From a virus: a stretch of DNA of 64,000 bases. Below the pieces are notes generated by a model. That model saw nothing but the letters and a program-made list of their open reading frames with translations. It was not told the origin of the DNA and ran no database searches. The position numbers and the translations under genes were made by a program. The DNA lies in IMG/VR virus record IMGVR_UViG_3300047319_000410, positions 3,599-67,598 of that record. One strand, given 5' to 3'. This document shows positions 19,251-59,531 of the stretch, piece after piece (position 1 is the stretch's first letter; the number at the start of each line of letters is the position of its first letter).

Positions 19251-19255
19251 GTAAT

Positions 19256-19261
19256 ATTATA
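19256..19261 (-). promoter_or_regulatory. putative -10 box of the glycan operon (leaderless)
   Basis: TATAAT-attac-ATG, just downstream of a terminator, with no SD. Confidence 0.55.
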
Positions 19262-19270
19262 CATGACTAT

Positions 19271-19307
19271 AAAATAGAAAAATCCTAGTTTTTATGGAAA
19301 ACTAGGA
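19271..19307 (-). terminator. rho-independent terminator
   Basis: Stem TCCTAGTTTT/AAAACTAGGA (19283-19307) followed by a T-rich tract on the minus strand. Confidence 0.75.
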
Positions 19308-19342
19308 AACCTTTTTAAAGAACGACGATCTACCGAATCGTA

Positions 19343-19918: not shown

Positions 19919-19930
19919 ATATGAATCTCC

Positions 19931-20725
19931 TTAATCTTTCAAATTTGCAACATAATTATCATTACTATCCTTGGTACCAAAGATATTGATAGTCGGAGCC
20001 TTTGTTGCAATAATAGTCTCCGCTATTAGTTTAACTTCTTCATATTCTGGCTTCTTAGCAATAAGAGCATAAATATCATGACACTTTTCCATTATACTAT
20101 TAATCTCTCCATCAGTCTTAGCTACTGGAGATTGCTTGGGACGAGGACCAGATTGTGAATAATCAGGCCACTCCTCTACCATCTTTTTAACAATCTTGTA
20201 ATCATAGCCAACCTTAGGATTTAACATTGAGTCTGGTTGATTAGTGTCCGGGTCTACTACTTCATAATCTACATTAGCAATATCAGATAAGATCTTTTCC
20301 CATAACTTAATTCCTATGGACAAAATCTTAACTTCATTAGTGGTTCGATCTAGAACATTCATGTAGTATCTAGCGCCTCGTTTGATTGATCGTGCAACTA
20401 GCTTAAGATGATCTCCACCACCCTTTTCAGGCTTGAACAATGCAAAGTAAAGTTCACATAATGGACAATTTTCCCCATGAACTCTTAAACATTGAACATT
20501 CTTAATTTGATCATTATCTCCAGCAATCCTATGAATAAAATTCTCTACATAGAATCTTAATCCTTCTTCCTTTGGGGGTAAAATTCTAACAGGATTATCT
20601 CCTACTTTTACCTCTAAAAAGTTCTTAAGAAACTCATTATTAGAGCCTCCCTTACCTTTATTTTCATTTTTAGCTTTTTGGTCTTCGTATTTTGCTCGTA
20701 ATTCGTTTAAGTCTACTTTTGCCAT
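19931..20725 (-). CDS. single-stranded DNA-binding protein (gp32-like)
   Basis: VRILPP, CLR..GENCPLC, RYYMNV, GYDYKIVK, WPDYSQS. Confidence 0.85.
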   Translation of the reverse strand: MAKVDLNELRAKYEDQKAKNENKGKGGSNNEFLKNFLEVKVGDNPVRILPPKEEGLRFYVENFIHRIAGDNDQIKNVQCLRVHGENCPLCELYFALFKPEKGGGDHLKLVARSIKRGARYYMNVLDRTTNEVKILSIGIKLWEKILSDIANVDYEVVDPDTNQPDSMLNPKVGYDYKIVKKMVEEWPDYSQSGPRPKQSPVAKTDGEINSIMEKCHDIYALIAKKPEYEEVKLIAETIIATKAPTINIFGTKDSNDNYVANLKD

Positions 20726-30040: not shown

Positions 30041-30328
30041 TTATTTTTTACTCCTAATAAATTTTGAAAATCCTCTATCTAGCTTACCAACATTAGAATA
30101 AGATAAATCATGAAATTTTTCTCCAATTTTATTGGGCAAAGCACTAATATAATAATCATGATTTTCATCTTTTATCACAAATTCAAAACTGCCACACTCT
30201 TCTTTATTCATAGGATGATAACATAGTCCAACACCAGAATCCTCATCTAAGTTAAGTAAATGAGCGGAAACAATAGTATTCTCTGACTTAGTACCAAAGT
30301 CTCCAGTAATCTTATATTTAATTTTCAT
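30041..30328 (-). CDS. hypothetical protein
   Basis: 95 aa ORF coupled to the polymerase gene. Confidence 0.6.
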   Translation of the reverse strand: MKIKYKITGDFGTKSENTIVSAHLLNLDEDSGVGLCYHPMNKEECGSFEFVIKDENHDYYISALPNKIGEKFHDLSYSNVGKLDRGFSKFIRSKK

Positions 30329-31421
30329 TTAATATCTCCTGTAAATTACTTACCTTACCATTAACGTATTTAACTTCTGTTCCTACATCGAACGCACGTC
30401 CAACAACTACTTCTATATTAAACGGCACTTCGCACTCAAATCCATAGATTTTTCTCAAAGATGGATAATTTATCATCTTATCATAAATTATATTTAAAGC
30501 CTCTTCTAACTCTGGTCTTGGAGACTCATTCTCAGCACTATCATGTACAGTTGCTAAAATTAATGAGTCGAGGCCACGTAACTCAAACTCATCATGAATA
30601 TCCATAAGACAATAAAGAAGAATGTCTGAAGCAGGGCGCTGGATTTTAAAATTGATTCCTTGTCGTTCTGCGTGCTCACGTACCTTCTTAATAGGAGACT
30701 TAATATCAGGGAGATTGCGCCTTCCGCCAAATAAACTTGTAACATATTGATGTTCATGTAAAAACTCTCTTGTTTCATCCATCCAAGTAAAAATACCCGG
30801 ATAAACTTCCATATACCTGTTTATAATACTCTGTGCTCTTTGAATCGAAATATTAACCTCAGAAGCTAATCTTCCTGCTCCTCCACCATAAACAATTAAG
30901 AAAGATACTGACTTTGCAATCTGTCTCTCTTCCTTAGTAATTTTCTCGATTGGTTTCTCAAAGATTAAACTAGCAGTATAAATATGCAAATCCACTCCTG
31001 AGCGGATTGCATTAATCATCTGCTTATCTTTACATACGTGTGCTAATACCCTTAGTTCCATTCCCGAATAGTCAGTAGTTATAAACAACCACTTAAGGGA
31101 ATTAAAAATCTCTCTTATATTAAGTTCTTTAGTTTTTCTTGGCAGAGTGTGGAAAGATACGCCCATTTTGTAATAACGAGAGCAAGACAGTCTACCAGTC
31201 GTAGTGCCATCAAATTTAAAATCAACATAAACTTTATTCTCACCATTATAATCTACTGCCTTCTTAATTCCTTTATAATAGGTTGAATATAACTTAGAGA
31301 CTTTCTTATACTTTTGAACTTGATTTATAAAGTCTCTAGCTCTTATTAAATCTTCTATAGATTTGGATTCAATTACCTTTCGGCAAATATCCTCATCTAT
31401 TTGTCTCTGATTTATTTTCAT
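30318..31421 (-). CDS. family A DNA polymerase, piece 3 (catalytic domain)
   Basis: TTTGRLS, motif A DYSGMELR, motif B RQIAKSVSFLIVYG, motif C VHDS. Confidence 0.92.
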   Translation of the reverse strand: MKINQRQIDEDICRKVIESKSIEDLIRARDFINQVQKYKKVSKLYSTYYKGIKKAVDYNGENKVYVDFKFDGTTTGRLSCSRYYKMGVSFHTLPRKTKELNIREIFNSLKWLFITTDYSGMELRVLAHVCKDKQMINAIRSGVDLHIYTASLIFEKPIEKITKEERQIAKSVSFLIVYGGGAGRLASEVNISIQRAQSIINRYMEVYPGIFTWMDETREFLHEHQYVTSLFGGRRNLPDIKSPIKKVREHAERQGINFKIQRPASDILLYCLMDIHDEFELRGLDSLILATVHDSAENESPRPELEEALNIIYDKMINYPSLRKIYGFECEVPFNIEVVVGRAFDVGTEVKYVNGKVSNLQEILNEN

Positions 31422-32165: not shown

Positions 32166-33167
32166 TTAAAACTCCTGTAAATATTCTGGGTAGTGTTCCT
32201 TAACTAAGTCCTTTAAATGCTTTGGTTTATTCTCTTCTATTTGATGCTGCATTAAAAGCGTATCATCCACATTAATTACTGTAATTTCATTATGTAAAAG
32301 CATCTTTAAATCAAATTTAGCATTGTGAAATACTTTTCTATTAAGTTTATTCTTACATATTAATGACATAAAACTTAGTGTAGTCAGAGGTTCAATCAAG
32401 GACTCTTTATGATAAACTGGGAAGCAAATTGCTTTACCTTCATCCCAAGCTATTGATACAGTTAATAATTTATCTTTAAGGAAATTTAATCCCTCAGTCT
32501 CAGTATCAATGGCAATAGTTTTATCAGTAGTAAATAACCATCTATAGTCTTCTAATTCTTTCTCTGAGTTAATAAGTTTATAATCTTGATTAATTACTGT
32601 CTTTATTTTTAAAATGTACTTATGATATGCATTTCTTATATCCTGCTCAAATAATACAAGGTTACGAGGCTCGTAAATAATAGAAGCAGGGTGTACAATA
32701 GGGACAACAGGAATTTCTTCATAATAAAATGTCTGTCCTCTCTTATCAATAATTCCACTCTTTCTAATTAGCATCTTCATTGCTAAGTTACCCATTGGAA
32801 TTATAAGTTTGGGCTTAAGTTTATCTATGGTATCTTTTAAGTGCTGCCTACAAATCTTCATATTAGAAGGAGTCATATCAGATTCCTTAATACTTGGACA
32901 CTTAACAGAAGCTAAACAAGTCCAACTAATTTCATCACTAAAAATCTTTCCAATAGTCTCTTTTAATAAGATATAGTTATCTGGAAGAAGTGCAACAGCA
33001 TTATTATCATAAGTTGGTCTTAGACAATCAGATAAAAATAATACATCTACTTCTTTAGAATTTTCATAATCCATGAATGAATGGAAAGGTTTATTCAACT
33101 TAAGAATTGAACATCCTTCACATTTTGAATTATTAGTAGATAAAGCTGGGAAGTCTATTTCGTCCAT
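32166..33167 (-). CDS. family A DNA polymerase, piece 1 (UDG-like domain + Exo I/II)
   Basis: CEGC, VKCP, ICRQHL, HPASII (family 4 UDG-like fold); IAIDTET; FHNAKFD; DDTLL. Confidence 0.87.
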   Translation of the reverse strand: MDEIDFPALSTNNSKCEGCSILKLNKPFHSFMDYENSKEVDVLFLSDCLRPTYDNNAVALLPDNYILLKETIGKIFSDEISWTCLASVKCPSIKESDMTPSNMKICRQHLKDTIDKLKPKLIIPMGNLAMKMLIRKSGIIDKRGQTFYYEEIPVVPIVHPASIIYEPRNLVLFEQDIRNAYHKYILKIKTVINQDYKLINSEKELEDYRWLFTTDKTIAIDTETEGLNFLKDKLLTVSIAWDEGKAICFPVYHKESLIEPLTTLSFMSLICKNKLNRKVFHNAKFDLKMLLHNEITVINVDDTLLMQHQIEENKPKHLKDLVKEHYPEYLQEF

Positions 33168-34752: not shown

Positions 34753-37245
34753 CTAAAGATTAGATTTAGTTAACATAGTTTCTAAGAGCTTACGTGTTAA
34801 AGCAAGATAATTATCTATTTCTACACTGTCATGAACACCTTTCATAACATTATGAGATACTTCATGCATTAACTCTTTCATATACTCAGTTACTTGAGTA
34901 GTTACAATAGAAGATAATTTTTTATTATAATCATCTTTAGCTCTAGTGAATAAAATTTTAAATATTACATGAGGTTTACCTAATACTCTTTTAATTATAT
35001 TAATTGATTGTCCACCAGAACCTTCAATTTCATAATCACCAGAAATTATTCCTTTAGCCATTTCTTGATTTAAAGTATTTTGATTAAATCTATAGATCTT
35101 GTTACTCTTAAGATTTCTTATTTCTAAACCTACGTTATTAATAGAGTTACCAGTTTCTAATATTAACATTCCTAAAGCTTGTCTAGCTAATCTAGTTTTA
35201 TTAGGATCTTTAATATCTCTTAATAAAACCCCTCTTGCAACTCTATTCTGAATTGAAACTTTAATTTTCTCTAAAGTTGGATATTCTTCCATTTTGACTC
35301 TTTTAATAGAGTCATCAATATCCTTTTTATATAATTGAGACTGAAAATCCCCAGCAGCTAATAGATCACTGACTATTTTTAATGTTTGTTCAATAGGATC
35401 AATATCTTTTCTTCCTATTACTTCTTCATTAAACAAATCATCAAGATGAGTTAATTGTTTATTAATTGCTCCATAATATGCTTTTAATGGTGAAGGTTGC
35501 TTTTCAGTAACGAAATTAAGATTATCATCTGAAAATGCAGTTGGTACAAAGCCAAATACTTCCTTTAGCATTAATTTACCAATCTGAGTTCCACTTTCCT
35601 TTGACCAACTTACTTTAAAATTAATAGGAAGTGCATGAACTATTTCTCCAGCTCCTATTCCTTGTTGCATTAAGTTACCAGAATTTGATTGTAAGTCTCC
35701 TGCTGTAAAGGACATAAGATCAGTTTCTTTTAATCCAAAGGTTTTAGCTGCTGCTAACGCTTTCCCTTTATTTGACTCTTTATAGACCTCCAAAATATCA
35801 GCTTTCTTACCTTTTTCAGATATATTACCAACGTGTAAGATAGCATCTGGTTGTCTGGAAGCAAAAGACTTAGTAGCTGATTGACCAAATAAACTATTAA
35901 GACTAGAGATTAATACTTGTTTGCTGGCTTCTAAAGCCATAAAATTACTATCTTTCTCTATTTTTAATAAGTCATTATAAAGGAATGCAGATAATTTATC
36001 TGCTTCTACAGAATCTTCACTATAAAGTACTTCGTTTATTCCTATCTTAGCTACGTACTCATTAAATTTATCTATTCTATTGCCCACATCTAGGGATATT
36101 TTAGTGAGTGTAGCAAGAGCTAGGGCTTTGTCCCCTCTTGCTACAGCTGCGACGACCATAGGGTATAACTCGAAGGATTTTCCCAGGTAATTAATCCATA
36201 CAATGTCCGACTCCCCCATCTTCTCTCTAGAGGTAAATCTAACTGAGTCACGATAAGATATAGCATCCTTTTCAAAGTCAGGAATATCTTTCTCTTTTTT
36301 CCAATGGGATACTCTTTTATTAAAAGATAAAACTAAATTAACAAAAGGATCACTTAAAATTTCTTCCTTCTTTTTATGTATCCCACCAGTCCCAACACCA
36401 TAGTCTGGGAGACCCTTACCTCTAACCCAAAGACCATTCCTGTCTATAATTAAAGTTTTAGCTAATTCTTGTAAATCGCCCTCTTTAAAAGTGTTGTGTC
36501 TAACAGATTCTTCAATTAAAGTTACTGCTTTAAATAAGTTTTCTGTGAAAGCATTCCTGGTAGTAGGATCTAAAACTCGTCTTTCATATCCTAGTTCACT
36601 TATAGCATAATTAACTTCTCCATTAAGTTTACCATAAAGACCCTGAGTTCCAGGGTTTAAAACTCTCATATTAAGTAAGTTTCCTGGAACTGATAACCAA
36701 TCAAGGGGCATTCCTGTTTTAGGAGATAAGGTTTGTTCAAAGAAACCATCAACTCTTAATTTTTCTAACTTATTTCCTATTTGTTGAAGATTATAAAGAG
36801 TGTTCTGTTCTAACATTGCATCTTCTGGTAAACCTCCCATTGGAGTCATTATATCCATAGGAACTGCTTTTGGAGCAAGTGCTAAATTTGACTCTTTTTC
36901 AGGTTCCTCTGTACCTGCACTTCCAACTCTTAATTTAGCCAACCATCTCCATTTTTCCATATTAACTTGACCAGATTTGGCAGTTAATATAGTTGGACGT
37001 TCTCCTGATTGAGTTTGAACATAGATTGGGAAATCTTGTCCCTCAATAGAATATGGAGTTAATAAGGCTACTGTAGGTTTAGTTGTAGTAGCCCAGGAAG
37101 GAATTTTAGCTACTGTACCTTGAAGACGCTCTACTTCTGTATCTATCTTAGCGTTTTGTTCATCATTCTCTACAATAGTTAATTTGAACTTACGCTTATT
37201 AATAAGTTCATAACTAGCTAACAGGTCTGTAAAGTAAGATTCCAC
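34753..37245 (-). CDS. large hypothetical protein, possibly virion-associated
   Basis: 830 aa, last gene of the tail operon; no recognisable family. Confidence 0.7.
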   Translation of the reverse strand: MESYFTDLLASYELINKRKFKLTIVENDEQNAKIDTEVERLQGTVAKIPSWATTTKPTVALLTPYSIEGQDFPIYVQTQSGERPTILTAKSGQVNMEKWRWLAKLRVGSAGTEEPEKESNLALAPKAVPMDIMTPMGGLPEDAMLEQNTLYNLQQIGNKLEKLRVDGFFEQTLSPKTGMPLDWLSVPGNLLNMRVLNPGTQGLYGKLNGEVNYAISELGYERRVLDPTTRNAFTENLFKAVTLIEESVRHNTFKEGDLQELAKTLIIDRNGLWVRGKGLPDYGVGTGGIHKKKEEILSDPFVNLVLSFNKRVSHWKKEKDIPDFEKDAISYRDSVRFTSREKMGESDIVWINYLGKSFELYPMVVAAVARGDKALALATLTKISLDVGNRIDKFNEYVAKIGINEVLYSEDSVEADKLSAFLYNDLLKIEKDSNFMALEASKQVLISSLNSLFGQSATKSFASRQPDAILHVGNISEKGKKADILEVYKESNKGKALAAAKTFGLKETDLMSFTAGDLQSNSGNLMQQGIGAGEIVHALPINFKVSWSKESGTQIGKLMLKEVFGFVPTAFSDDNLNFVTEKQPSPLKAYYGAINKQLTHLDDLFNEEVIGRKDIDPIEQTLKIVSDLLAAGDFQSQLYKKDIDDSIKRVKMEEYPTLEKIKVSIQNRVARGVLLRDIKDPNKTRLARQALGMLILETGNSINNVGLEIRNLKSNKIYRFNQNTLNQEMAKGIISGDYEIEGSGGQSINIIKRVLGKPHVIFKILFTRAKDDYNKKLSSIVTTQVTEYMKELMHEVSHNVMKGVHDSVEIDNYLALTRKLLETMLTKSNL

Positions 37246-37248
37246 ACT

Positions 37249-37602
37249 TTAATATTTAGCACCAGTTAGAGCATTGTCTGGATTTGACTCTTTTGCCCTA
37301 CTGACTTCTGCTTCATACTCTTTGCACGCTTTATTATACTTAGATTCAAATGACTTTAGAAAATCTACTATAACTTTTAATTTTTTAACTTTTTCTTCAC
37401 AACAATCTTCACCAAAAATATTTAAATCTATTCTTAAAGGATCTCCGTATTCGTTTGATATTTTTATACAAGCATCTAAGTCATGTGGTCTAACTCTAAT
37501 ATGACCAGAGATATTAGATGCTCCATCATCACTAAGCCATTCTCGTTTCTTATATGAGAATATTGGTTTTTCCCCAACAAACTCAACTAAAGTCTTAGCC
37601 AT
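37249..37602 (-). CDS. hypothetical protein
   Basis: 117 aa ORF coupled to the tail tube gene. Confidence 0.65.
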   Translation of the reverse strand: MAKTLVEFVGEKPIFSYKKREWLSDDGASNISGHIRVRPHDLDACIKISNEYGDPLRIDLNIFGEDCCEEKVKKLKVIVDFLKSFESKYNKACKEYEAEVSRAKESNPDNALTGAKY

Positions 37603-40296: not shown

Positions 40297-40479
40297 TTAT
40301 GCGTTCGCTATTTTAATCATTCTTCGTCTAAACAAATTAAAAATTATATCTGTTAGATAGTAGTCTGGGACTGTTATGGATTCTTTAGGGTTTAAATAAA
40401 TTCTATTTATACCTTTTTCTGTTTTAAAATATAACTCTAATCCTTGCAAACAGTCGTTTTTAATTTCTTTTAAGACCAT
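40297..40479 (-). CDS. hypothetical protein
   Basis: 60 aa ORF downstream of a late promoter. Confidence 0.6.
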   Translation of the reverse strand: MVLKEIKNDCLQGLELYFKTEKGINRIYLNPKESITVPDYYLTDIIFNLFRRRMIKIANA

Positions 40480-40488
40480 AAAATTATC

Positions 40489-40502
40489 TATTTATATTTA
40501 TA
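40489..40502 (-). promoter_or_regulatory. T4-type late promoter (two overlapping TATAAATA)
   Basis: TATAAATATAAATA on the minus strand upstream of the sheath/tube operon; a gp55-like gene is present. Confidence 0.6.
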
Positions 40503-40537
40503 ACACCTATAAGCATAATTTAAGAAATATTTCGTAT

Positions 40538-42793
40538 TTATGGCACTATTACCCAAGTATTTGATTTTAATGAGGGAACTCCACCAGCCCCACCAAATCC
40601 AGGAACTATAGTCTCAGGAATACAAAAATTACCTCCATTAGTATCAGTAAATGGAAGACAATCAATAGTAGACCCACAACTAGGAGGACCCTGCTCAGGG
40701 AATAAAGTTAATAATTTATTTAAATCATCAAAAGTAAAAGCCGCTGGCTGATAAACTTCCCTACCATCCCTAAATATTTGACTTGGACAGGCATTAAAAT
40801 CAGTCAACATAGTTTTAACTTCAGAAGTTAAATTTAAAGTTGATCCAGTAGATAGCCCAGCAAAATTAGTATAAAGTAATAAAGTATCTATATTAAAAGC
40901 ACTAACAATAGAAATAGTATTAATAGCAGAAGCAATATTATAAGTATAATTACTCCACCCAGAGAAATCTTGAACTATGCCAAACTGTAAGAATCTCCCA
41001 TCCCTATCTACCCACATATTACAAGAAGATGGATAAGTTAAAGTACAAGAAGCCAAGAAATTACAGGCAAATGTAGGATCCATTGCACTCCAAGCATGAT
41101 TTCCTGGTCCTGCGGATACTACTAAAGTCTTACCACTATATCCTAAAGTAGAAGTTAAATAGTTATATAAAATTCTAGTAGAAGAAGCCAAATAAGCTAC
41201 TGGTTCATTAGAAGTAACAAAACACATAGTAGTTATATGCTTTAAATTATTAGCCAATGTTCCACTTGCATAAGCAACCGCAGAAGTATTTTGATCAATA
41301 GTAATTAAAGATCCTTGCTCATATTCAAATGGTCTTTGCTCTGGTTGAAGTGCAGAAACTTCAGACCAAAACTGACCTTGGAAAGGGAAATAATCAGGAT
41401 TAGCTCTGCCCGCTAATAAAAATCTAGACTCTGTGGTAGCATTATTATCTTCATACTGAGTAAATCTAGCGGAAGTTCCTCCAGTATGAATTATAATTCC
41501 AGCGAATAATCCATCAACAGGATCTAAATATCTAGCTGCGTATTGACCCGCATTACCAGAATGTGAAAAGCTAACTCCAAGTATTCTTCTTCTATCAATA
41601 TTAGGATATGTATCTAACATATATCTAATTGATCTTCTGGTATTTTCAAAAGAAGCTACGTTTCCTCTGTTTCTTATCTGCGTAACATTAGGAATTATAG
41701 GTCCAACCTGCCCAGTTGGAATTAATAAATACCAACCTCTATCTACTGTTTGTTGATAGAATTGAGTATTATGTAGTGCATTATTAGTTCCGCTATAAGC
41801 ATCTTCATTCCAAGCATGAAATACTACTAATAATGGAGCAGTAGTTTCTCCAGTGTTATAGCAAGAAGGAACAGAGAAAAAAGCTGTTTCTCCATAAGCG
41901 GTTCCTGTTATAGAAGAAGTAAAAGTAAAAGTTCCTGAGAATCCAGCATTACAATCACCAGGAGGTCCACTACTTCCAGATCCAGCTCCCCCACCAGATC
42001 CAGTAAATGCTACTGAACTAAAGATGGTGTCACCACCATTAAACATATCAACTTCTAAATTTATCTCTTGAATGTCACCAGTAGAAGTATAAAGATATTT
42101 TTTAGTTGGGAGATAAGCTTGTACCTGAATCTCAAATTGTTTTCTTATTACCCTATCTTCTCTATCTCCAACAATATAAGATGAATTATCTCCAAACTCG
42201 TTAATAAAGGCTAGGGTCTTATTACTGAATTTAGTAACTACAGTTAGGGCCGGATTGAATAAAGAAAATACTTGCTCCTTAATTTGATCGAGGTCTTCAG
42301 TATACTTAACCCAAACATTAAGAAGATAAATTATCTTTACTGGTCTGGATACTAAAGAAATTATACGTTCATTTTTTGCTATACCAGTATCCCTAATGGT
42401 CTGAGCATAGACCATAGGATTAAATCGTCTTCTAGTATCGTCGTTTTCGTCCCCAACTTGACTAATAGAAAGGAAAGGAAGAACTAAATTCTCTTCCTTC
42501 ATTAAACTTGCTACTGCACGCTCTGGATTAGCATATACACACTTAATAGGAATTCTTTGATCATCTTTTCCTAAAAATTGAAATTGATTAAAATTATTTT
42601 TTAAAGATTTAAGAGTTTCTTTATAAAGTTGGCTTATACCTGTTTTATCTTTTCCTGCTTCATTAATGAATTGTCTCATTAATTCAAAAGGATAATACGC
42701 TTGACTTCTTGCTACTGTAGAGTGAGCAATAATATCATCATTATTGTCAAACGATGAAGTAGATAATTCTGTTAAATTAATTAAATTAGGCAT
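40538..42793 (-). CDS. tail completion/sheath terminator (gp15-like) fused to an alpha/beta-hydrolase domain
   Basis: N-terminal IPIKCVYANPER/LPFLSI/EDLDQIKEQV..FNP and position after the neck genes; Gly-rich linker; PLLVVFH, IDRRRILGVSFSHSG, GNHAW. Confidence 0.75.
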   Translation of the reverse strand: MPNLINLTELSTSSFDNNDDIIAHSTVARSQAYYPFELMRQFINEAGKDKTGISQLYKETLKSLKNNFNQFQFLGKDDQRIPIKCVYANPERAVASLMKEENLVLPFLSISQVGDENDDTRRRFNPMVYAQTIRDTGIAKNERIISLVSRPVKIIYLLNVWVKYTEDLDQIKEQVFSLFNPALTVVTKFSNKTLAFINEFGDNSSYIVGDREDRVIRKQFEIQVQAYLPTKKYLYTSTGDIQEINLEVDMFNGGDTIFSSVAFTGSGGGAGSGSSGPPGDCNAGFSGTFTFTSSITGTAYGETAFFSVPSCYNTGETTAPLLVVFHAWNEDAYSGTNNALHNTQFYQQTVDRGWYLLIPTGQVGPIIPNVTQIRNRGNVASFENTRRSIRYMLDTYPNIDRRRILGVSFSHSGNAGQYAARYLDPVDGLFAGIIIHTGGTSARFTQYEDNNATTESRFLLAGRANPDYFPFQGQFWSEVSALQPEQRPFEYEQGSLITIDQNTSAVAYASGTLANNLKHITTMCFVTSNEPVAYLASSTRILYNYLTSTLGYSGKTLVVSAGPGNHAWSAMDPTFACNFLASCTLTYPSSCNMWVDRDGRFLQFGIVQDFSGWSNYTYNIASAINTISIVSAFNIDTLLLYTNFAGLSTGSTLNLTSEVKTMLTDFNACPSQIFRDGREVYQPAAFTFDDLNKLLTLFPEQGPPSCGSTIDCLPFTDTNGGNFCIPETIVPGFGGAGGVPSLKSNTWVIVP

Positions 42794-43353
42794 TATCTAC
42801 CATATCCTTCAAGATCATTAGTTTCTGTTCTAGTAATATCAAGCACCTCAGCATTGTCTCTTAGGATTCTAGCAGAACAAATTAAATGATAAACTCCATA
42901 AGCCTCAAAACTATCTTCCTGAACTTCAAATATCTCATATTTAATATTTTGAAATTTAGGTTGAATTACATCACCAACCTTAACTGATCGTTCTAATCTG
43001 TACTCTAGATAAGATTTATTAAAAGTAAATACTTGATCATTAGTTAATTCAATACCAAACTCAGATAAATTTTCTTCTATAATCTTAGGGTCAAAGTGGC
43101 CTACGACTAGAATACCTTCTTTAGCTATTATTTTATTTCTATCTTCTAAGTAAATCTTATCAAAAGAAGTTTCATTACCTAGGTACTTAAAATAAAGTAT
43201 TGGGGATCCAGTTAATTTAATAGCCTCATCATCAATCATATTAAATAGATTAATATCTGGGTTAGATTGATCATATAGATTTAATAGACCACTTTCTCCC
43301 GACTCTGGAGTATAGATTACTGGAGTAGATACTTTAAAGTTCTCTTTGGACAT
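42793..43353 (-). CDS. neck protein (gp14-like)
   Basis: DEAIKLTG, DKIYLEDR, LSEFGIEL, VKVGDVI, YEIFEV; synteny. Confidence 0.78.
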   Translation of the reverse strand: MSKENFKVSTPVIYTPESGESGLLNLYDQSNPDINLFNMIDDEAIKLTGSPILYFKYLGNETSFDKIYLEDRNKIIAKEGILVVGHFDPKIIEENLSEFGIELTNDQVFTFNKSYLEYRLERSVKVGDVIQPKFQNIKYEIFEVQEDSFEAYGVYHLICSARILRDNAEVLDITRTETNDLEGYGR

Positions 43354-45016: not shown

Positions 45017-45161
45017 TGTTTTCCTCTTTTTTAATTTCTATTAGATATGGATGATTAATAAATTGATGAAATTCCACTATTTGATTAGGATAAATCTCTT
45101 TAATTTCATCATCCACATAAATTAATAACTTACTTCTACTATTGCATTTAAATTTAAACAT
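44946..45161 (-). CDS. hypothetical protein
   Basis: 71 aa ORF; its 3' end overlaps the next small ORF. Confidence 0.55.
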   Translation of the reverse strand: MFKFKCNSRSKLLIYVDDEIKEIYPNQIVEFHQFINHPYLIEIKKEENNEGNFEYPKRSDVSRKKKEVQEE

Positions 45162-45732
45162 TCTGACTCTTATTTATATACTCATTTTCTAGGTTATTTA
45201 ACTCTATTATTTTCTCTTCTCTATGAGTTTCCCTGTGGCAATTAGCACATAATAGGTCACATTTATCTAATTCAAACTTAATTTTATCATCAAATACTCT
45301 TGTTCTAACTTCAAATATAGAAAAACTTTTTTCCTCTGGATTTCTGTGATGAAAGTCCATAGCTTCTGGGCACTTATTATAACCACACTTAATACATTTT
45401 CCTCCTTTATATTCTAAGCATTTTAATTTAAATTTACCTCTATTTTGTAAATTATTTTTAACTGCACATTTTCTACAGGCAGAAGAATATCCATGTTTAA
45501 ACTTATTATTTTTGTAAAAATAAGATAAATCAAAGGTTCTATGACAATAATTACATTCTTTAAAATTAAAAATTAAATTTGGTTTAATTCTGCCATAAGG
45601 AAGACACTCTAAACAATTTAATCTTGTATGAAGTTTTTTACGTACCCCATTTATTTTAATAACGGATTTAAATTCCTTACCACAATCTTTACAGACCAAC
45701 ATTCTACATTTACGATTACGAGTCCAAACCAT
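45154..45732 (-). CDS. free-standing HNH (homing-type) endonuclease
   Basis: GGKCIKCGY, DFHH, CDLLCANCHRETH, plus N-terminal CxxC pairs; own TATAAT (45751-45756) and AAGGAG SD. Confidence 0.85.
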   Translation of the reverse strand: MVWTRNRKCRMLVCKDCGKEFKSVIKINGVRKKLHTRLNCLECLPYGRIKPNLIFNFKECNYCHRTFDLSYFYKNNKFKHGYSSACRKCAVKNNLQNRGKFKLKCLEYKGGKCIKCGYNKCPEAMDFHHRNPEEKSFSIFEVRTRVFDDKIKFELDKCDLLCANCHRETHREEKIIELNNLENEYINKSQNV

Positions 45733-52521: not shown

Positions 52522-54801
52522 TTAATTTAAAGTTATAGTTTGAGTATCAAAACTACCATTCCCACCATGATTAAAGAACGTAGGAGGATATCCTACCATT
52601 TCCCAGGTAACAGTAGGATAAGTAGCAATACTAATTAATGGATCTAAAGCTGAGGAACCACTTAATCTCTTCCAGAAAGGATTATCTAATAAAGTAATAA
52701 AAGTGGAATAAGCTATACAATCCCTACCACCGTCTCCAGAAGTAGTATTAGTTGGATCTAATAATGCAGTATCATAATGAACTGGGAATGCTACGTAGAT
52801 TATAAAATGATCACTATACTTCTCAACCCATATACTTTGAGTCTCAGATTGGGTGCTATTTCCATCAATATAAGAAAATTGTCCTGTATATTGTAATTTA
52901 GCCACAATATCATAAGTAGTAAGTCCTGCTGGTAGGAAGCCAAAATTTATTTTTTTCTTTATAAAGGTTATTCTATTAAAATGACTTTGCCCACCACCTA
53001 TAAGAGGAAGTGCGCTAAAATCTCCGGCCCCTAAAGCCTCTCCTCCTTGGGGAGAACTATAAATGCGATGTGAAATAGTATTCCAATAGTCTATTTTAAC
53101 ATCATGAATATAATCATTTCTATGTACGTCAAATCCTGGTAGTGGTGGGGTTGTCCAATCAGCAATATCCCATTCGGGATCTAAAGGTATTGGATCTACA
53201 ACATCTAATTGGAATGTACCATTATTAGCAATATCTGTCATAAATAAGTCAGGCAATGAACTAGCCCCACTTAAACTATTATCATGATTATAATCAATAA
53301 CCCCTGCTTGATGTAAAAGTGCTCCTTCTACACCATATCTAACCCCTCCACGAATGATTCCCCCCGCTAGAACGCTTGGTCTTGCAGTAGGTTGTTCATT
53401 AATAACAGTATTAACATAATTTATCACATTAGTAATCTGTTCATCTATCTGAATCTGTCCTACAGCCGGATTACCTAAAGAAAGAGGAGGTACTGCACCG
53501 GCAATTCCTGTTCTTTCGGCATAACTTAATTCCGCAGTTCTAAAGAATGGACGAATATCAATTATCTGGTCAGAAGATATAATAGGATTGCCATTAGTAT
53601 CAACTGGAGTAGTATTTTTAATTAAAACATAACATACTGGTAGAACTGATTGTCCTATAATTTGTAAATCATTAGTTTGTAAACTATCAGCAAGTAAAGG
53701 AGCTAAATTAAGAAGATCTTCTGGAGAGGGGAATGATCCGTGAATATTAAGTGCTGAGAATCCATTATCAACTAAAGTATCTGATTCATTAGGAATCATT
53801 ACTGGAGTAAATCCCTCATTGTCTCTATTAGGCAACGGTTGTGATATTGTATTCTGACCAGAAGGAGTAAATTGAAGAATCCCAAGTCCTGCGCCCTTAA
53901 GAATACCTAAGGTAGGTCTATTAATAGTGGTAGGAGTATTTCCTCCTCCTCCATATTGTTGAATTTTAGTTGCAGTAGCATCTATAGGATGAGTATAGAT
54001 AAATACTAAGTCAATTCTTTGGGTAGCAGGAATTGGAATAATAGTAGCGCCAGAAACATAAAAGAAATCATCAGGATCAAAAGGAGGAACAATAATACTA
54101 AGTTCTGTTGGAACATCTACAACCGCTGTTCTAGCTACTCCTCTCCATCTTTGTACGAATTTATTAAAGAAGAAACTTATTCTAGGAGAAGTAGATTGAA
54201 TATCTAAGTTCCCTCCAAGAGCATTTCTAAAGTCCTGAATTAAAGGAAAAGGTTGGTGGGCTGCCCCTGGATCTATATTTCCAGGAATTGGATATTGTGG
54301 AGAGTTAGATCCTATAGTAGCAGATGTAATAGTATAAGGAGTATCTTTATTTATTACTATAAAAGTTAAAGCTCTCTCCATTAAACCATTATTATTAGTT
54401 GCATTAGAAGCAATAATATTGCTCATTATTTGTAAGAAATTAATTTGATACTGAGCATTAGTGTAATATCCTAAAGTACCTAATGTTTGTCCTTGAGTCT
54501 TATCAAAAGTTAATATTGGAGTTTGAGAAGCATCATTAACTCTAGCCATAAATCTTCCGGGCTTAACTCTAACAAGATCATCCGACCCATTACTATAAGG
54601 AAGTAATTCAGTAAATCCAGACCTGTCTATGCTTCCAGCAGTATTTCCTCCTCCGGCTGTTCCTCCTATCTGATCCTTTAACCAAAGATCATTCTCTATT
54701 AATTGAGATAAAGGAATATTATCTACTTGCCAAAAATAAGGATCATTAGCCTTAAATAATCTTATGGGAGATGTAAATTGATGTGTACTTGGTAAAGCCA
54801 T
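52522..54801 (-). CDS. baseplate/tail structural protein
   Basis: 759 aa in the baseplate cluster; N-terminal WQVDNIPL..L resembles WEQDNLPI..L of the upstream gene. Confidence 0.6.
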   Translation of the reverse strand: MALPSTHQFTSPIRLFKANDPYFWQVDNIPLSQLIENDLWLKDQIGGTAGGGNTAGSIDRSGFTELLPYSNGSDDLVRVKPGRFMARVNDASQTPILTFDKTQGQTLGTLGYYTNAQYQINFLQIMSNIIASNATNNNGLMERALTFIVINKDTPYTITSATIGSNSPQYPIPGNIDPGAAHQPFPLIQDFRNALGGNLDIQSTSPRISFFFNKFVQRWRGVARTAVVDVPTELSIIVPPFDPDDFFYVSGATIIPIPATQRIDLVFIYTHPIDATATKIQQYGGGGNTPTTINRPTLGILKGAGLGILQFTPSGQNTISQPLPNRDNEGFTPVMIPNESDTLVDNGFSALNIHGSFPSPEDLLNLAPLLADSLQTNDLQIIGQSVLPVCYVLIKNTTPVDTNGNPIISSDQIIDIRPFFRTAELSYAERTGIAGAVPPLSLGNPAVGQIQIDEQITNVINYVNTVINEQPTARPSVLAGGIIRGGVRYGVEGALLHQAGVIDYNHDNSLSGASSLPDLFMTDIANNGTFQLDVVDPIPLDPEWDIADWTTPPLPGFDVHRNDYIHDVKIDYWNTISHRIYSSPQGGEALGAGDFSALPLIGGGQSHFNRITFIKKKINFGFLPAGLTTYDIVAKLQYTGQFSYIDGNSTQSETQSIWVEKYSDHFIIYVAFPVHYDTALLDPTNTTSGDGGRDCIAYSTFITLLDNPFWKRLSGSSALDPLISIATYPTVTWEMVGYPPTFFNHGGNGSFDTQTITLN

Positions 54802-54802
54802 A

Positions 54803-57800
54803 TTAATTAATTCGTCCTAGTTCAAATATATTCGCAGAGTAAAATCCACCACCATCGGCTCCTTCACTATCCAATCCCTCTCCACCCCTATTATTTTTAG
54901 CTTTATATATCATAATCTGTCTTCCTGTGCCTGACTTATTTAAAGATAAATGCTTAGCGTTTGCAAATGTATTAGCCGCAGATTCATCCAAAAATATTCT
55001 TCCTATGGTTGAATCCAACATCGCACTAGCATAATAAAATCCAGATAAAGTGCTAGCTGCGCCATAAATAGTATCATCTGCAATAGCCACCAATGTAGCA
55101 GAAGGATTATATCCTTGTGCAAAAGATTGATATACAAGTCCTAGGGCTGAAGTAGTATAATTTAAACTCTTAGCAAGTGTAAAGGGTGAAAGATAAATTC
55201 TAAATGGCCCATAATTAGATTTACTAGCCCCAGGCCTAACTATTGATGATCCACCAAATAAATCTAATATGCTTTGGGATGAACTATCTGGAGTCCCTGC
55301 TGGAGCCCCATAAGCCACAACTCCAGCCCCAGAACTATAAACAGAACTAGGCCCATCATAACCAGCACCAGATGGATATAATCCACTAACACTTAGATAA
55401 GCTGCTCTTAATTTTGAGGTATCAGCAATATTCCAAATAAATAATTGTTCAAAATTATCTGTTGAATCATAATGTATTCCACTAACATTACCAAATCCCA
55501 TAGGGAAATTTACATTGTGCAAATTTACTAAACTATCGGTAACTGCTCTTACACATACCCCACCTTCGCTTATAGCACTTTGAGCCCCTAAAGTACTTGT
55601 TCCTATTTGTAATGGATTAGTAACAGTTGCAAAAGCTAATATAGTATTTTGTGGATTAGGGTAAAATTGTAAAAATCCAGCAGAAACATAAGAAGCATTA
55701 CTATAAGAATTTTTACTCATATCACTAATAGCAACATCTGGGTTGGATCCCCAATGAGTAGTAAAATCTCCTAAATCTTTAGCATCTAATATAGAGTTAT
55801 GATTTAATACTATACAAGCTCTAGTAGAATGAAATTCTGCTTTAGTATGATTTGTAGTATCTACTAAATTCCAACCACTAACATCAACGGAACCTGAGTC
55901 TAGTCTTGGGGGATTAATAAAGATTGTAGAATTATTTTCTGCTAAACAATCAACACCAAATTGTGCTACTTTAGTTGGACCAGTAAATTCAATTTCTGAT
56001 TCTCCACTAATAAATACCCCAGCATTATATTGTTGGGTGCTTATTGTTCCAGGGCCTATTATAAAAGTAGCATAAAGTCCAGATCCTCTACAAATTATAT
56101 TAGAATTTCTCTTAGCAGATATAGCAGCACCATAAATTGGACCATCATAACCTCTCGGAGCAGCACCAGTATATTCAAGTGTAGCACCATTTAAATGTAC
56201 AAATTCTGCTTGTGTGCCATAAACATCTATCCCTGGTAATAAATGCTTAATACTTCCACTATTATCCCCAGGAGAAATAGCGTGAGAACTTACTGAATAA
56301 AATCTACCATATACTGAAGGCATATTTGTAGTTTTAGTAGGTAAGATGGTAGAATTTCTAGCAACTATATTTTGACCATTTCTATCTAAATAAAATTGTT
56401 GAAAATCTGTAATTGAAGGTGCAAAAGACGATAAATTAGAATTATAAATTAAATGAGAATTATTTAAACTTAATCCAAAACTTTTTTGTCTATCAATTCC
56501 AAATTCTTGTAAATTGAAATTAGAATTAACTCCAATTATGCCAACATTATTACAGAATACATCCGGTCTTCCATTAAATTTAAATATAGAACTATTACCT
56601 CTAATACCTATCTTATTATTATAATAAGATTGTAACCAGAGGGTGGACCCTAGGACGCTACTGCTACTCCTTGAGAATCCTCCCCCTATCACTGAATTAT
56701 AAGCATCTAATCCAACTCCATTCCTGGAGAATGCTAATAATATATCATCATTTTGAGCATAATTAGTATTAGAACTTAAGTTAAGTTCTGTGTTTACTAA
56801 TTTAACTCCTGCGCCTTCATCTAATGAAGGTCTAACTGATGCACTTAAAGCATAGTTTCTATATCCTATTACTCCTCTAGAGAATATTACTTTAGAGTTT
56901 GTTGCCTTGTACCCAGATTCAGTACTTCGCATTGAAGCACAATTTTCAATTATTACATTTGAGTTATTAATCTCAAACCCATTATTAGTAGTATGTACGT
57001 TAACATCTCCTCCGTCTACACACAGTCCTCTAAGATAAATAGGACCATCACAATTTTCTATTTTAATACTGTTAAAGTAATTACCATATACTAGAATTTC
57101 AACTGCGTCACTTATAGCAGCATTAGTTCGTTTAATTTCTGTAATACCATCAATTCCATATACAGGAAGAACATCCCCAGTAGTAACAGATGCATCTTGA
57201 GTACTTCCAAATACACTTCCAGCATTAAAAGTAAATATATTATTAGCTACTGTAGTTAATCCAGCAGAGTTTACCACGACTGTCATTCTATCAGTCTTTT
57301 GGCCCCCAGGTTTAGAAACAAATATTCTATTAGTAGTATTATAACTACCATCTCCAGCACCAGATAATATAGTTGTTCCAAGACTTACTGTAGATGTATT
57401 AAGAAGAGTATTTTTTAAATCTAGAGAAGATACAGCAGAAACAAAGATTTGACCATCTACCGTAACTAATCCATTAACTATAGCAGATGCTTGAACTGTT
57501 CTTCCATAACATCTATTAATAATTTCTAATACACCATTTTTAGTAATTTTAATATTATTTAAATTTAATGAACTTAAAGCACCAAAAGTTGCAATCTCAA
57601 TTTGCATTGGAAATGATATAACTTCTGGTATTGCATTTACTAAATCTGATATTACAGTAAATACATTTTGAACACTATTAGGATTTGAACCAGAAAGGAC
57701 GTAACTTATTCCAGGTATTGAAGAGGTCGGGAATCCCATCCTCTCAAAATTAAATTGAGTTCTAGTCTCTAAGTCATAAATAGGTAAATTATCCTGTTCC

Positions 57801-57910
57801 CAATTATAAAAAGATGATGAATCAAATTTATAAACACTAGGTACCCAAGTATTTCCTACTTTAGATGAACCACCATTTCCTGTAAAAGTATCATTAATAT
57901 CAAAGGCCAT
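54803..57910 (-). CDS. tail/baseplate protein with parallel beta-helix region
   Basis: 1035 aa; repeated N.xGI...NS.. units typical of right-handed beta-helices. Confidence 0.65.
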   Translation of the reverse strand: MAFDINDTFTGNGGSSKVGNTWVPSVYKFDSSSFYNWEQDNLPIYDLETRTQFNFERMGFPTSSIPGISYVLSGSNPNSVQNVFTVISDLVNAIPEVISFPMQIEIATFGALSSLNLNNIKITKNGVLEIINRCYGRTVQASAIVNGLVTVDGQIFVSAVSSLDLKNTLLNTSTVSLGTTILSGAGDGSYNTTNRIFVSKPGGQKTDRMTVVVNSAGLTTVANNIFTFNAGSVFGSTQDASVTTGDVLPVYGIDGITEIKRTNAAISDAVEILVYGNYFNSIKIENCDGPIYLRGLCVDGGDVNVHTTNNGFEINNSNVIIENCASMRSTESGYKATNSKVIFSRGVIGYRNYALSASVRPSLDEGAGVKLVNTELNLSSNTNYAQNDDILLAFSRNGVGLDAYNSVIGGGFSRSSSSVLGSTLWLQSYYNNKIGIRGNSSIFKFNGRPDVFCNNVGIIGVNSNFNLQEFGIDRQKSFGLSLNNSHLIYNSNLSSFAPSITDFQQFYLDRNGQNIVARNSTILPTKTTNMPSVYGRFYSVSSHAISPGDNSGSIKHLLPGIDVYGTQAEFVHLNGATLEYTGAAPRGYDGPIYGAAISAKRNSNIICRGSGLYATFIIGPGTISTQQYNAGVFISGESEIEFTGPTKVAQFGVDCLAENNSTIFINPPRLDSGSVDVSGWNLVDTTNHTKAEFHSTRACIVLNHNSILDAKDLGDFTTHWGSNPDVAISDMSKNSYSNASYVSAGFLQFYPNPQNTILAFATVTNPLQIGTSTLGAQSAISEGGVCVRAVTDSLVNLHNVNFPMGFGNVSGIHYDSTDNFEQLFIWNIADTSKLRAAYLSVSGLYPSGAGYDGPSSVYSSGAGVVAYGAPAGTPDSSSQSILDLFGGSSIVRPGASKSNYGPFRIYLSPFTLAKSLNYTTSALGLVYQSFAQGYNPSATLVAIADDTIYGAASTLSGFYYASAMLDSTIGRIFLDESAANTFANAKHLSLNKSGTGRQIMIYKAKNNRGGEGLDSEGADGGGFYSANIFELGRIN

Positions 57911-57922
57911 AGTTAAAATTTC

Positions 57923-58501
57923 CTAGAATTGCAATGTCCATCTAAACACAAGGTTGAAAGAATTACTCTTAGTTATTGTTGGGAAACTCTTGTAAGCTGC
58001 TAATATAGCCGCAGGTACTACTCTACTTAATGGATTTTTAATAAAAATACCAATCTCATTTAAAGCTATTCCATTAGAACTATTCTCGTCTATAGAAAGA
58101 GTATATCTAACAGAAGAATCAGTTACTCTAGTTACTTGATTAAATGGAATTACTAAAAATGGTAGATTCTGTACTATGACTCCATTTTTAATCTGATCTA
58201 TGGTAGCAACTACTAAAGCTGCATTTGTCCCATATTGAGCAGCAGTTAAAGGAGAACTTAATTGATAAGTACTTGAAACTTCTAAAGCCGAAGTACCTGA
58301 AGTTCCTAACTGAAAGTAAGTAATCTGATAGTCAGTTATTAAATTAGATCCCGCTCCTTGGAATAAGAGAGATAGACCTACACCCATTCCCGATACGATT
58401 ATATTATGATCGTCATGATATAATTCTTCTCTACCATCTCTATATTGTTTAAAGATTTGTAAATGACCAGACATTTCGAGTTTATCATTAAAATTAAACA
58501 T
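57923..58501 (-). CDS. baseplate/tail-fibre attachment protein
   Basis: HNIIV..G, YFQLGT, LNEIGIF, AYKSF..ITK....LVFRWTL. Confidence 0.6.
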   Translation of the reverse strand: MFNFNDKLEMSGHLQIFKQYRDGREELYHDDHNIIVSGMGVGLSLLFQGAGSNLITDYQITYFQLGTSGTSALEVSSTYQLSSPLTAAQYGTNAALVVATIDQIKNGVIVQNLPFLVIPFNQVTRVTDSSVRYTLSIDENSSNGIALNEIGIFIKNPLSRVVPAAILAAYKSFPTITKSNSFNLVFRWTLQF

Positions 58502-58538
58502 AATTAACTTATATACCTTATCTAGGTTAAATCTTAAA

Positions 58539-59531
58539 TTAGAAGAATATCCTCCACACTATTTTAAGTAAAGCTACCGGAGGATTTCCTGTTGGTAATA
58601 AATCGCTCTCCGCTGTAGTTAAATCTCTTAAGAATGACTTTTTAGAAAATAATTTAAATGGAATAGAAGAAGGATAAGTAGTAAAATTAAACGGTGCTGA
58701 GGAAGTTTGTAATAATAATTTTGTATTAATAGCCCACAAACCTAAACTATAAATTCCACCATATAATTGTAATAACTCCATATCTCCGTCATACATTTGA
58801 GTTATATAAGCTACTTCCCTTAAAGAAGAGAACGTAGAGTTAGAAGATACAATAAAATTACCATCTATATTAGTTTGGGCTGAGGCTGCGTAGTTTAATT
58901 TAACATAACCTCTATAATCCATTGTGCCTCTTAAATTATAAGCCCCCATACACTTATTATATTGTCCTATAGTAGTGTTATTATAAGAGCTAACATGCAC
59001 GGAAGTTCCGCTTCCCTGAGACACGGGCCAACACCCGGAAGCTATAGCCTGAGCGGCTGTGAGTCCTAATTGAGAGGAAAACTGAATGAAATTAGGTAGT
59101 TGATAGAAGGTCGCAGAGGAGTCATAAGGATAGATTCCAGGCTCTAAAACCTTATCTATAGGACTAGGATAAGTTGGAAGCCCATGAACATTAGTATATC
59201 CCTTATGATAACCAGCAGCGGATACCCATGAATAAGGTACATTATTGCTATCTGTGCTTGGTCTTGTAGTACCATCTAATACAGTAAAAGTAGATCCATG
59301 TAAATTACCATAATAAGAGGATGCATCTTTACCAAAAGAAATAGCCTGAACAGTCCAGTTAGAAGTATTTAAAACCGCAGATGCAGTAGGTATATTAGCT
59401 ATAAAAGGAGGAATGGTCATCATTTCCGCAATTATTTTGCGTGCTTCATCTACAATAAGATTTCCCTCTTTATGGACTAGCCTTTCGGTTCCATCTTGGA
59501 AAACTTTATAAATTTCTACTTGTCCATTCAT
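58539..59531 (-). CDS. baseplate/tail-fibre attachment protein (paralog)
   Basis: GQVEIY..NLIV and IVWRIF ends parallel to the downstream gene. Confidence 0.55.
   Translation of the reverse strand: MNGQVEIYKVFQDGTERLVHKEGNLIVDEARKIIAEMMTIPPFIANIPTASAVLNTSNWTVQAISFGKDASSYYGNLHGSTFTVLDGTTRPSTDSNNVPYSWVSAAGYHKGYTNVHGLPTYPSPIDKVLEPGIYPYDSSATFYQLPNFIQFSSQLGLTAAQAIASGCWPVSQGSGTSVHVSSYNNTTIGQYNKCMGAYNLRGTMDYRGYVKLNYAASAQTNIDGNFIVSSNSTFSSLREVAYITQMYDGDMELLQLYGGIYSLGLWAINTKLLLQTSSAPFNFTTYPSSIPFKLFSKKSFLRDLTTAESDLLPTGNPPVALLKIVWRIFF

Follow-up and report, generated by a model that had tools for sequence, protein, structure and literature searches.

In the uncultured phage of IMG/VR virus record IMGVR_UViG_3300047319_000410, a tail terminator of the gp15 type and an esterase-like module are encoded as a single protein. 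The gene was analysed within a stretch of 64,000 nucleotides, referred to here as the window, which comprises bases 3599-67598 of the 67.6-kb record, judged 39% complete. Its product is an uninterrupted 751 residues long and consists of a gp15 part, a 15-residue Gly/Ser/Pro linker, and a C-terminal module of the alpha/beta-hydrolase type whose best family match has an E-value of 9.8e-39. The reading that we favour, at about an even chance, is of a tail terminator with a permanently attached serine-esterase module that would be displayed at the neck of the virion. An original prediction made from the DNA letters had described the same fusion in one open reading frame (ORF) and proposed six esterase or peptidase domains at the neck, perhaps deacylating host capsule. 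Its observation is confirmed and its interpretation is partly supported.

The gp15 part

Profile and alignment evidence identifies the N-terminal part as a gp15 tail terminator, also termed a tail sheath stabiliser, as had been predicted. PF16724 (T4-gp15_tss) matches residues 80-244 with an E-value of 5.6e-8 and 32.7 bits against a cut-off of 25, and scores 35.1 bits in a six-frame search of the contig. The N-terminal part is also matched by phrog_227 'tail sheath stabilizer' (E 1.6e-6), and with the query sequence alone the two best PDB matches, both weak at E 0.03, are T4 gp15 (4huh, 3j2m). A tblastn search with residues 1-271 at E<=1 matched 204 phage records; 28 of the 30 matches listed lie on gp15-type genes, with one on a hypothetical protein and one on an unannotated record. 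Fifteen columns are invariant between the fusion and the gp15 proteins of S-SZBM1, Melnitz, Acj61, and a megaphage, including a D..QI.EQ..F.P core. This core, the Pfam match, and the place between neck and sheath genes are shared with T4 gp15 (PF16724; 4HUD, 4HUH, 3J2M), whereas the fusion differs from it in its length and in the replacement of the T4-type C-terminal tail by the linker and a 470-residue enzyme-like module. The alignment also places ~50 extra residues at the N-terminus of the fusion relative to other gp15 proteins.

In T4, gp15 residues 209-272 are described as sharing a sheet with gp18's C-terminal domain, and the gp15 C-terminal domain rests on the top sheath ring (PMC12929629). 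Other myophage terminators are described as having the same arrangement with a shorter arm (PMC12929629, PMC10491603, PMC10457771). The segments INLEVDMF and IFSSVAFT of the fusion match the I..h.VD.F strand region of other gp15 proteins in the alignment. By analogy with T4, residues 234-263 would be the strands that pair with the sheath.

The original prediction had called for a comparison of gp15 length in relatives. In a profile search of proteins of 134-613 residues (at least 8000 candidates), 119 of the 120 best matches have the ordinary length of 263-280 residues, the lone exception being a megaphage gp15 of 350 residues. The gp15 proteins of three annotated phages have 265, 273, and 275 residues. 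A profile search of 7314 candidates of 614-2000 residues gave no long gp15 other than the fusion, although this is weak evidence.

Integrity of the fusion

The fusion is real and not an assembly artefact. When contigs of four other sequencing runs were aligned to the window, 23 of 25 did so at an identity of at least 99%. A 527-nucleotide contig of run X2 covers 41614..42140, which includes the whole linker and the breakpoint at 42095 described below, and a 330-nucleotide contig of run X4 covers 41981..42310. Both are free of differences, and both runs come from other soil or rhizosphere samples and studies. The stretch 40400..42900 is present, whole or in part, in 24 rhizosphere or soil runs listed, from 24 studies; one of these may be the source of the record, and there is no RNA run among them. 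The virus is a soil or rhizosphere phage. The identical protein is also found on two contigs in a protein collection.

A chimera made in assembly, or two genes joined by a sequencing error, is consequently a most improbable explanation. In its favour, the phage is known from metagenomes alone and its lone relative diverges abruptly within the gene. The contigs from two other samples that span the linker and the breakpoint argue against it, as do the second contig with the exact protein and the esterase-family homology, which starts in frame right after the linker. Base composition points the same way, with a G+C fraction at third codon positions (GC3) of 0.19 in the gp15 part, 0.15 in the module, and 0.16-0.28 in the neighbouring structural genes. 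This match means that the module is not high-GC bacterial DNA stitched onto a phage contig. Although its relatives are from Planctomycetota, it is fully adapted to the low-GC genome.

The arrangement has so far been seen in this one phage. In a set of 5.8 billion proteins the fusion protein matches only itself, and the whole protein has no fusion relative in 50,697 phage records at E<=1e-5. Pattern scans of IMG/VR with the protein, the sheath, the esterase alignment, and the gp15 alignment gave no fusion relative either. In a six-frame search of the 67.6-kb contig, the sole PF16724 match and the sole esterase-family match both fall in the fusion gene.

A related terminator without the module

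The only relative found of the gp15 part of the fusion lies on a 1043-bp metagenome contig, L085. It shares 81.7% nucleotide identity with window positions 42840..42095, and L085:60-797 aligned with 42095..42793 gives 200 identical residues out of 233 (86%, residues 1-233). The ratio of nonsynonymous to synonymous divergence (dN/dS) for the gp15 part is 0.09, at a dS of ~1.0. Homology breaks abruptly at codon 233 (window position 42095), and the L085 reading frame stops 12 codons further on, at 245 residues, with neither linker nor module. The canonical gp15 strand motif that follows residue 233 is kept in the fusion and absent from L085.

The module is thus absent from a related tail terminator, and the break at codon 233 looks like a site of recombination. 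For the last 246 bases of L085, the window, phage records, and Rfam all gave no match. An intron in this downstream part was considered and ruled out, there being no Rfam match below E 0.67 and none near the gathering score. The switch suggests either alternative C-terminal cassettes on the terminator or an aberrant short contig, and L085, at 1 kb, may itself be the latter.

The esterase-like module and its family

On the homology evidence, the C-terminal part is a two-domain esterase-like module. An exhaustive HMMER search with the C-terminal 480 residues against 1.84 billion representatives returned 209 relatives at E<=1e-3 and 12 at E<=1e-30, the best of them at 35% identity. Homology starts at the 'PP' that follows the linker and extends as far as the terminal W..P, with identities of 25-37%. 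A family hidden Markov model (HMM) built from 81 relatives, with the query left out, matches residues 280-700 in one piece with 255 bits. The relatives are nearly all 420-580 residues long and are matched from their residue ~60-190 to the C-terminus; none of the 150 matches listed has room for a gp15 domain ahead of the module. Three relatives are giant surface proteins with the module at the N-terminus, followed by Big_1/invasin/beta-helix or DUF11 repeats.

Relatives are encoded by 185 stretches in 185,579 species genomes. Of these, 79 loci were retained, and 72 of them carry Planctomycetota titles, the cultured Rohdeia mirabilis Pla163 being one. The four relatives inspected have a hydrophobic, signal-peptide-like start followed by a P/A/S-rich linker, which suggests that the family works outside the cell. 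The phage module has its two-domain layout and its Ser, Asp/Glu, and His columns in common with these stand-alone proteins of about 450-530 residues. It differs from them in the absence of a signal peptide, the fusion to a virion protein, the Cys-rich insert, and a very long branch. In a family tree of 80 rows, with none left out, the end branch of the phage copy has a length of 1.95, compared with a median of 0.28, and attaches at the family's unresolved base. Given this placement and branch length, no donor can be named. Three loci (L065, L080, L083) belong to one metagenome-assembled genome titled Paracoccaceae yet fall among Planctomycetota in the tree, which may reflect a binning error or a transfer.

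Known families recognise the module poorly. It has no relative in the 50,697 phage records at E<=1, and the C-terminal part of the phage protein matches no Pfam family at E<=10. Seven of ten homologues match Pfam alpha/beta-hydrolase families (Abhydrolase_1, Peptidase_S9, AXE1) only below the cut-off, and the other three match none. Membership of the polyhydroxybutyrate (PHB) or polyhydroxyalkanoate (PHA) depolymerase family was considered and rejected. The NCBIfam models TIGR01840 and NF050058 have no match on the phage protein, and the homologues remain below both cut-offs, all nine scoring 23.2-41.6 bits against 150 on NF050058 and at most 25.5 bits against 107.85 on TIGR01840.

Solved structures are reached through the family profile, which includes the query. 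Against the PDB it finds LC-Est1C (3WYD, E 2.9e-18), Thermotoga maritima EstA (3DOH, E 1.6e-8), a feruloyl esterase (9J07, E 2.4e-8), and a PHB-depolymerase-family esterase (8DAJ, E 9.8e-7), whereas the phage sequence alone finds no solved esterase there. The likeness to these four is at the profile level only, with Ser, acid, and His in register for 3WYD. A comparison in the ESM Atlas gave a feature score of 0.96 and a template modelling (TM) score of 0.79 to an alpha/beta-hydrolase cluster, which serves as a lead only. As the closest proteins of solved structure are esterases of the carboxyl, feruloyl, and PHB types and the relatives look secreted, acyl-ester hydrolysis is the most likely chemistry. 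Of the predicted 'esterase/peptidase' domains, a module of the esterase kind is supported, and nothing points to a peptidase.

The accessory domain that follows the hydrolase domain is probably a beta-sandwich. In homologues, residues 585-751 form part of the same conserved module, with conservation reaching residue 700 and resuming at the final W..P. A likeness to the C-terminal beta domains of GH31 is weak, with E 0.017-0.02 in the PDB profile search and TM scores of 0.42-0.46 in the Atlas. The family HMM alignment stops at residue 700, ahead of the Cys-rich insert. The module contains ten Cys in total, compared with one in the gp15 part.

Candidate catalytic residues

All the motifs quoted in the original prediction are present, namely GSGGGAGSGSSGPPG at residues 265-279, PLLVVFH at 320-326, NIDRRRILGVSFSHSG at 398-413, and GNHAW at 564-568. 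Conservation was assessed in an alignment of 82 sequences and in a wider set of 150 matches, of which 138 cover the nucleophile and 148 the histidine. The Ser410 column is Ser in 82/82 and 138/138 sequences, and the His566 column is His in 82/82 and 148/148. The Ser of SFSHSG and the His of GNHAW that had been singled out are thus the invariant nucleophile and histidine of the family. For the acid of the triad, Glu530 is the candidate, lying in an Asp/Glu column as had been anticipated (D 69, E 12, T 1 of 82; D 127 and E 18 among the 150). His326 is probably part of the oxyanion-hole region, a role that we presume from the general layout of this esterase type.

Conservation extends beyond these residues. 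Of the 42 columns conserved at 90% or more, the phage retains 32, at an overall identity of ~30%, and the relatives retain 37-42 (median 41). Polar columns that are kept include E302, H326, R352, W354, D400, R403, R421, D424, H436, S495, N516, and W568.

Proposed role at the neck

In the reading that we favour, the gp15 part would form a hexameric ring capping the tube and sheath, and the fusion would be incorporated without cleavage. The aligned strands end at residue 263, and the 15-residue linker would then exit at the top face of the sheath. Six modules of ~470 residues and ~52 kDa each would thereby be arranged around the neck, where other myophages bear a separate collar. Each would comprise an alpha/beta hydrolase with a putative Ser410-His566-Glu530 triad and a beta-rich accessory domain. 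The module would most likely cleave carboxylic esters, for example removing O-acetyl or other acyl groups from an extracellular polymer that belongs to the host or to the soil or root matrix, and this may free or guide the virion in thick polysaccharide. Since tens of nanometres separate the neck of a contractile tail from the cell surface, the target is more likely to be a thick capsule, biofilm, or root mucilage than the receptor itself.

Several observations weigh against this reading. A contractile tail keeps the neck well away from the cell surface. The C-terminal arms of a terminator are described as buried in the handshake domain of the sheath (PMC10491603), and the exit of a further 490 residues at this point is therefore only assumed. 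As the gp15 of L085 lacks the module, the module would be dispensable for a related tail. The nucleophile elbow is also atypical. G-x-S-x-G occurs in 138/138 homologues covering the elbow, either Gly being replaced in 0/138, whereas the phage has S-F-S-H-S, with a change of both glycines to Ser that is unique to it, and this makes activity uncertain. Of its ten departures from the conserved columns one is the start Met, and among the remaining nine, five are grouped at the elbow (Y405L, G408S, M411H, G412S, and G414N). The long branch is as compatible with an altered or lost function as it is with long residence in a phage. The Atlas model is moderate (predicted TM score 0.57; predicted local distance difference test, pLDDT, 0.63), and the family has no characterised member. 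Its genomic context is uninformative, with an FtsX-type permease, cysteine dioxygenase, and ferrochelatase near two Planctomycetota loci. From the sequence, catalytic activity of the module is plausible but not secure.

The main rival is a binding-only pseudo-enzyme, in which the esterase fold and pocket are kept, turnover is lost or nearly so, and the module tethers the neck to an acylated polymer. The polymer could be host capsule or extracellular polysaccharide, or a plant or soil polysaccharide. We regard this as possible, though on balance unlikely. The replacement of both elbow glycines is unique among 139 sequences, the five changes are grouped at the elbow while distant conserved residues are kept, and the branch is very long, all of which would fit a loss of turnover. 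Precedents for binding at the neck are also available, as the neck passage structures of 936-type phages are described as ending in carbohydrate-binding modules (PMC6669499) and the D domain of the Milano collar as resembling glycan-binding proteins (PMC10491603). On the other hand, Ser, His, and acid are all kept across a sequence divergence of ~70%. Serine, being a small residue, agrees on both sides of the nucleophile with the classical small-x-nucleophile-x-small rule. Activity is also favoured by the report of an active soil esterase whose motif is SxSxG (PMC7936011), while no example of an esterase with Ser after the nucleophile was found.

A role without any contact with host or matrix would make the module a built-in collar that stiffens or locks the junction of neck and sheath, possibly through disulfides formed after lysis. 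The ten Cys of the module, including those of the insert at ~701-745, would suit such a collar, and mechanical collars exist, for example the disulfide-linked collar described for Milano (PMC10491603). However, a purely mechanical role leaves the retained triad and a dozen polar family residues unexplained, and a flexible 15-residue linker speaks against a rigid brace, making this explanation improbable. Still less probable, and in our view very unlikely, is a mixed or bare ring in which a short gp15 is also made, either by frameshifting at a run of five G at codon 268 (~41990) or by proteolysis. The -1 frame stops four codons past codon 270 and would give a product of ~273 residues, the canonical gp15 size. 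The run is not a canonical slippery heptamer, though, and the RNA downstream of it folds no better than shuffled sequences (z -0.19); it is probably just Gly codons. An internal start would not separate the two parts either, as no in-frame one yields a complete hydrolase and the only ATG after the linker is Met392. As for proteolysis, T4-like phages are not known to have a system that cleaves tail proteins.

A bolder extension of the esterase reading, which we put forward only tentatively, is that the tail terminator of contractile phages can be used as an exchangeable display platform. Six active esterases would have been hard-wired as a ring onto the neck by a swap of cassettes at codon 233 of gp15, and would deacylate plant-root or biofilm polysaccharide or host capsule. 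The ring would then be an enzyme that clears matrix or destroys receptors from a place other than the baseplate. If true, it would be a soil counterpart of the esterases of enveloped viruses and of mucus-adhering capsid decorations.

Comparison with known neck and virion enzymes

Terminators have been seen as small, conserved plumbing, enzymes are expected on fibres and baseplates, and known collars are separate proteins. The original prediction had likewise placed virion enzymes on the baseplate or fibres. This is broadly right, as a review puts nearly all depolymerases at the baseplate, on fibres or spikes, and names the neck as a rare exception (PMC5380687), but it passes over neck modules that are known as separate proteins, in Vibrio myophage XM1 and in 936 phages. 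Tailspike deacetylases and other depolymerases are likewise virion-borne hydrolases of host surface polysaccharide, with deacetylating tailspikes among them, and none is described as part of a tail terminator (PMC5380687).

The closest parallel in position is the collar spike gp40 of XM1, which is reported to place six host-interaction modules at the neck of a contractile tail, in contact with the terminator. Over its C-terminal two thirds, gp40 shows homology to a tailspike (PMC10457771). It is described as a separate trimer, held non-covalently through an immunoglobulin-like domain and a coiled coil, with a distal part of the tailspike type (PMC10457771), whereas the module of the fusion is predicted to be a monomeric alpha/beta hydrolase covalently joined to the terminator itself. 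The neck passage structure of lactococcal 936 phages is a collar at the head-tail junction with carbohydrate-binding modules, two groups of which are said to resemble the binding module of a carbohydrate esterase (PMC6669499). It differs in being separate, trimeric, and fibrous, in belonging to a non-contractile phage of Gram-positive hosts, and in its relation to CE2 and not to the family of the phage module. Other separate collar proteins described at the same place are T4 fibritin, the terminator-bound gp126 of Goslar, and gp13 of Milano, which has a glycan-binding-like domain.

Virion-borne depolymerases and neck decorations are already known; the apparent novelty lies in the covalent joining to a tail terminator and in the recruitment of this particular esterase family. 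In the main texts of the literature, no fusion of a tail terminator and an esterase, or of a tail sheath stabilizer and a hydrolase, was found described; 'tail terminator' and 'beta hydrolase' co-occur there only as separate ORFs. The finding is limited to a single uncultured lineage with an atypical elbow. If the esterase reading is true, the myovirus neck can be functionalised by simple gene fusion, with a copy number fixed at six and a fixed position, without a docking domain. It would also mean that phages have recruited an uncharacterised, secreted esterase family of the Planctomycetota type, for which the fusion would be the first functional handle, and it would offer a natural template for cargo display on the gp15 C-terminus of T4-like phages.

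Gene neighbourhood and features of the contig

The contig has a G+C content of 33%, and all its long ORFs are on the minus strand. The genes are ordered as a gp13-like gene, three small ORFs, the fusion gene, a 60-residue ORF, sheath, and tube (Table 1). The ATG of the fusion shares one base with the stop of the ORF upstream (42793..43353). A 186-residue ORF in the position of gp14 is without any match in Pfam, PHROG, or the PDB. The gp23-like major capsid protein has just 30% identity to the nearest phages, and the phage belongs to a very distant T4-like lineage. A promoter and terminator scan gave nothing usable, with promoter counts at or below the shuffled expectation.

Table 1. Positions in the window of the fusion gene, its parts and candidate residues, and the neighbouring structural genes
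Feature	Residues	Position	Strand	Basis
gp15-esterase fusion, whole gene	1-751	40538..42793	-	single stop-free ORF, 751 residues plus stop, ATG start
gp15 domain (tail terminator / tail sheath stabiliser)	1-263	42005..42793	-	PF16724, phrog_227, alignment
Last ~30 gp15 residues	234-263	42005..42094	-	align with C-terminal strands that pair with the sheath in T4
Gly/Ser/Pro linker GSGGGAGSGSSGPPG	265-279	41957..42001	-	sequence
Alpha/beta-hydrolase (esterase-like) domain	280-584	41042..41956	-	family homology, family HMM, PDB profile
His326 of PLLVVFH, probable oxyanion-hole region	326	41816..41818	-	H in 81/82
Nucleophile elbow S-F-S-H-S	408-412	41558..41572	-	Ser410 at 41564..41566
Glu530, candidate triad acid	530	41204..41206	-	Asp/Glu column; aligns with Asp of the 3wyd DND motif
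His566 (GNHAW), candidate catalytic histidine	566	41096..41098	-	invariant; aligns with the 3wyd GDH histidine
Accessory domain, probably beta-sandwich	585-751	40541..41041	-	conserved in homologues
Cys-rich insert	~701-745	40556..40690	-	C706, C712, C724; absent from 81 homologues
gp13-like neck protein, 287 residues		43972..44835	-	phrog_211 head-tail adaptor Ad2 E 3.5e-19; T4 gp13 9mkb E 2.9e-6
Tail sheath with terminator-binding C-terminal domain, 698 residues		38189..40285	-	Phage_sheath_1C 39.3 bits; phrog_23 E 1.9e-70
Tail tube, 192 residues		37595..38173	-	phrog_4542 E 1.3e-18; Pfam Phage_T4_gp19 27.9 bits, slightly below the cut-off of 28.2

Downstream of the tube, ORFs of 117 and 830 residues (34753..37602, minus strand) have no Pfam, PHROG, or PDB match. 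The order of sheath, tube, small ORF, and long ORF recalls the chaperone and tape-measure layout of P2-like phages and not that of T4. Between the major capsid gene and the neck genes lies an HNH endonuclease (45154..45732, minus strand; phrog_2255, E 2e-37), which may be a mobile element in the structural module.

A run of ~20 kb of sugar-nucleotide and glycan genes (631..20725, minus strand) is found inside the phage contig. It encodes a DegT aminotransferase, a GDP-mannose 4,6-dehydratase, two further epimerase/dehydratases, a methyltransferase, and a DJ-1/PfpI protein, together with two split pairs of transketolase/E1-like subunits, two B12-binding radical S-adenosylmethionine enzymes, and two glycosyltransferases. 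There may be a link between a glycan-directed neck module and a phage able to produce or alter an unusual sugar.

Three large ORFs of 759, 1035, and 1296 residues (52522..63421, minus strand) have as their only match a Tail_P2_I stretch in the 1296-residue protein, and probably represent an unsampled kind of baseplate or fibre protein. The replication genes include a family A DNA polymerase domain (E 3.3e-76) and, in a separate ORF, a domain like uracil-DNA glycosylase together with a 3'-5' exonuclease domain (30318..31421 and 32166..33167, minus strand). A DnaB helicase, a ribonucleotide reductase large subunit, and an SbcC-like protein are also encoded on the contig. The phage thus combines T4-like head and neck genes with replication genes that are not T4-like.

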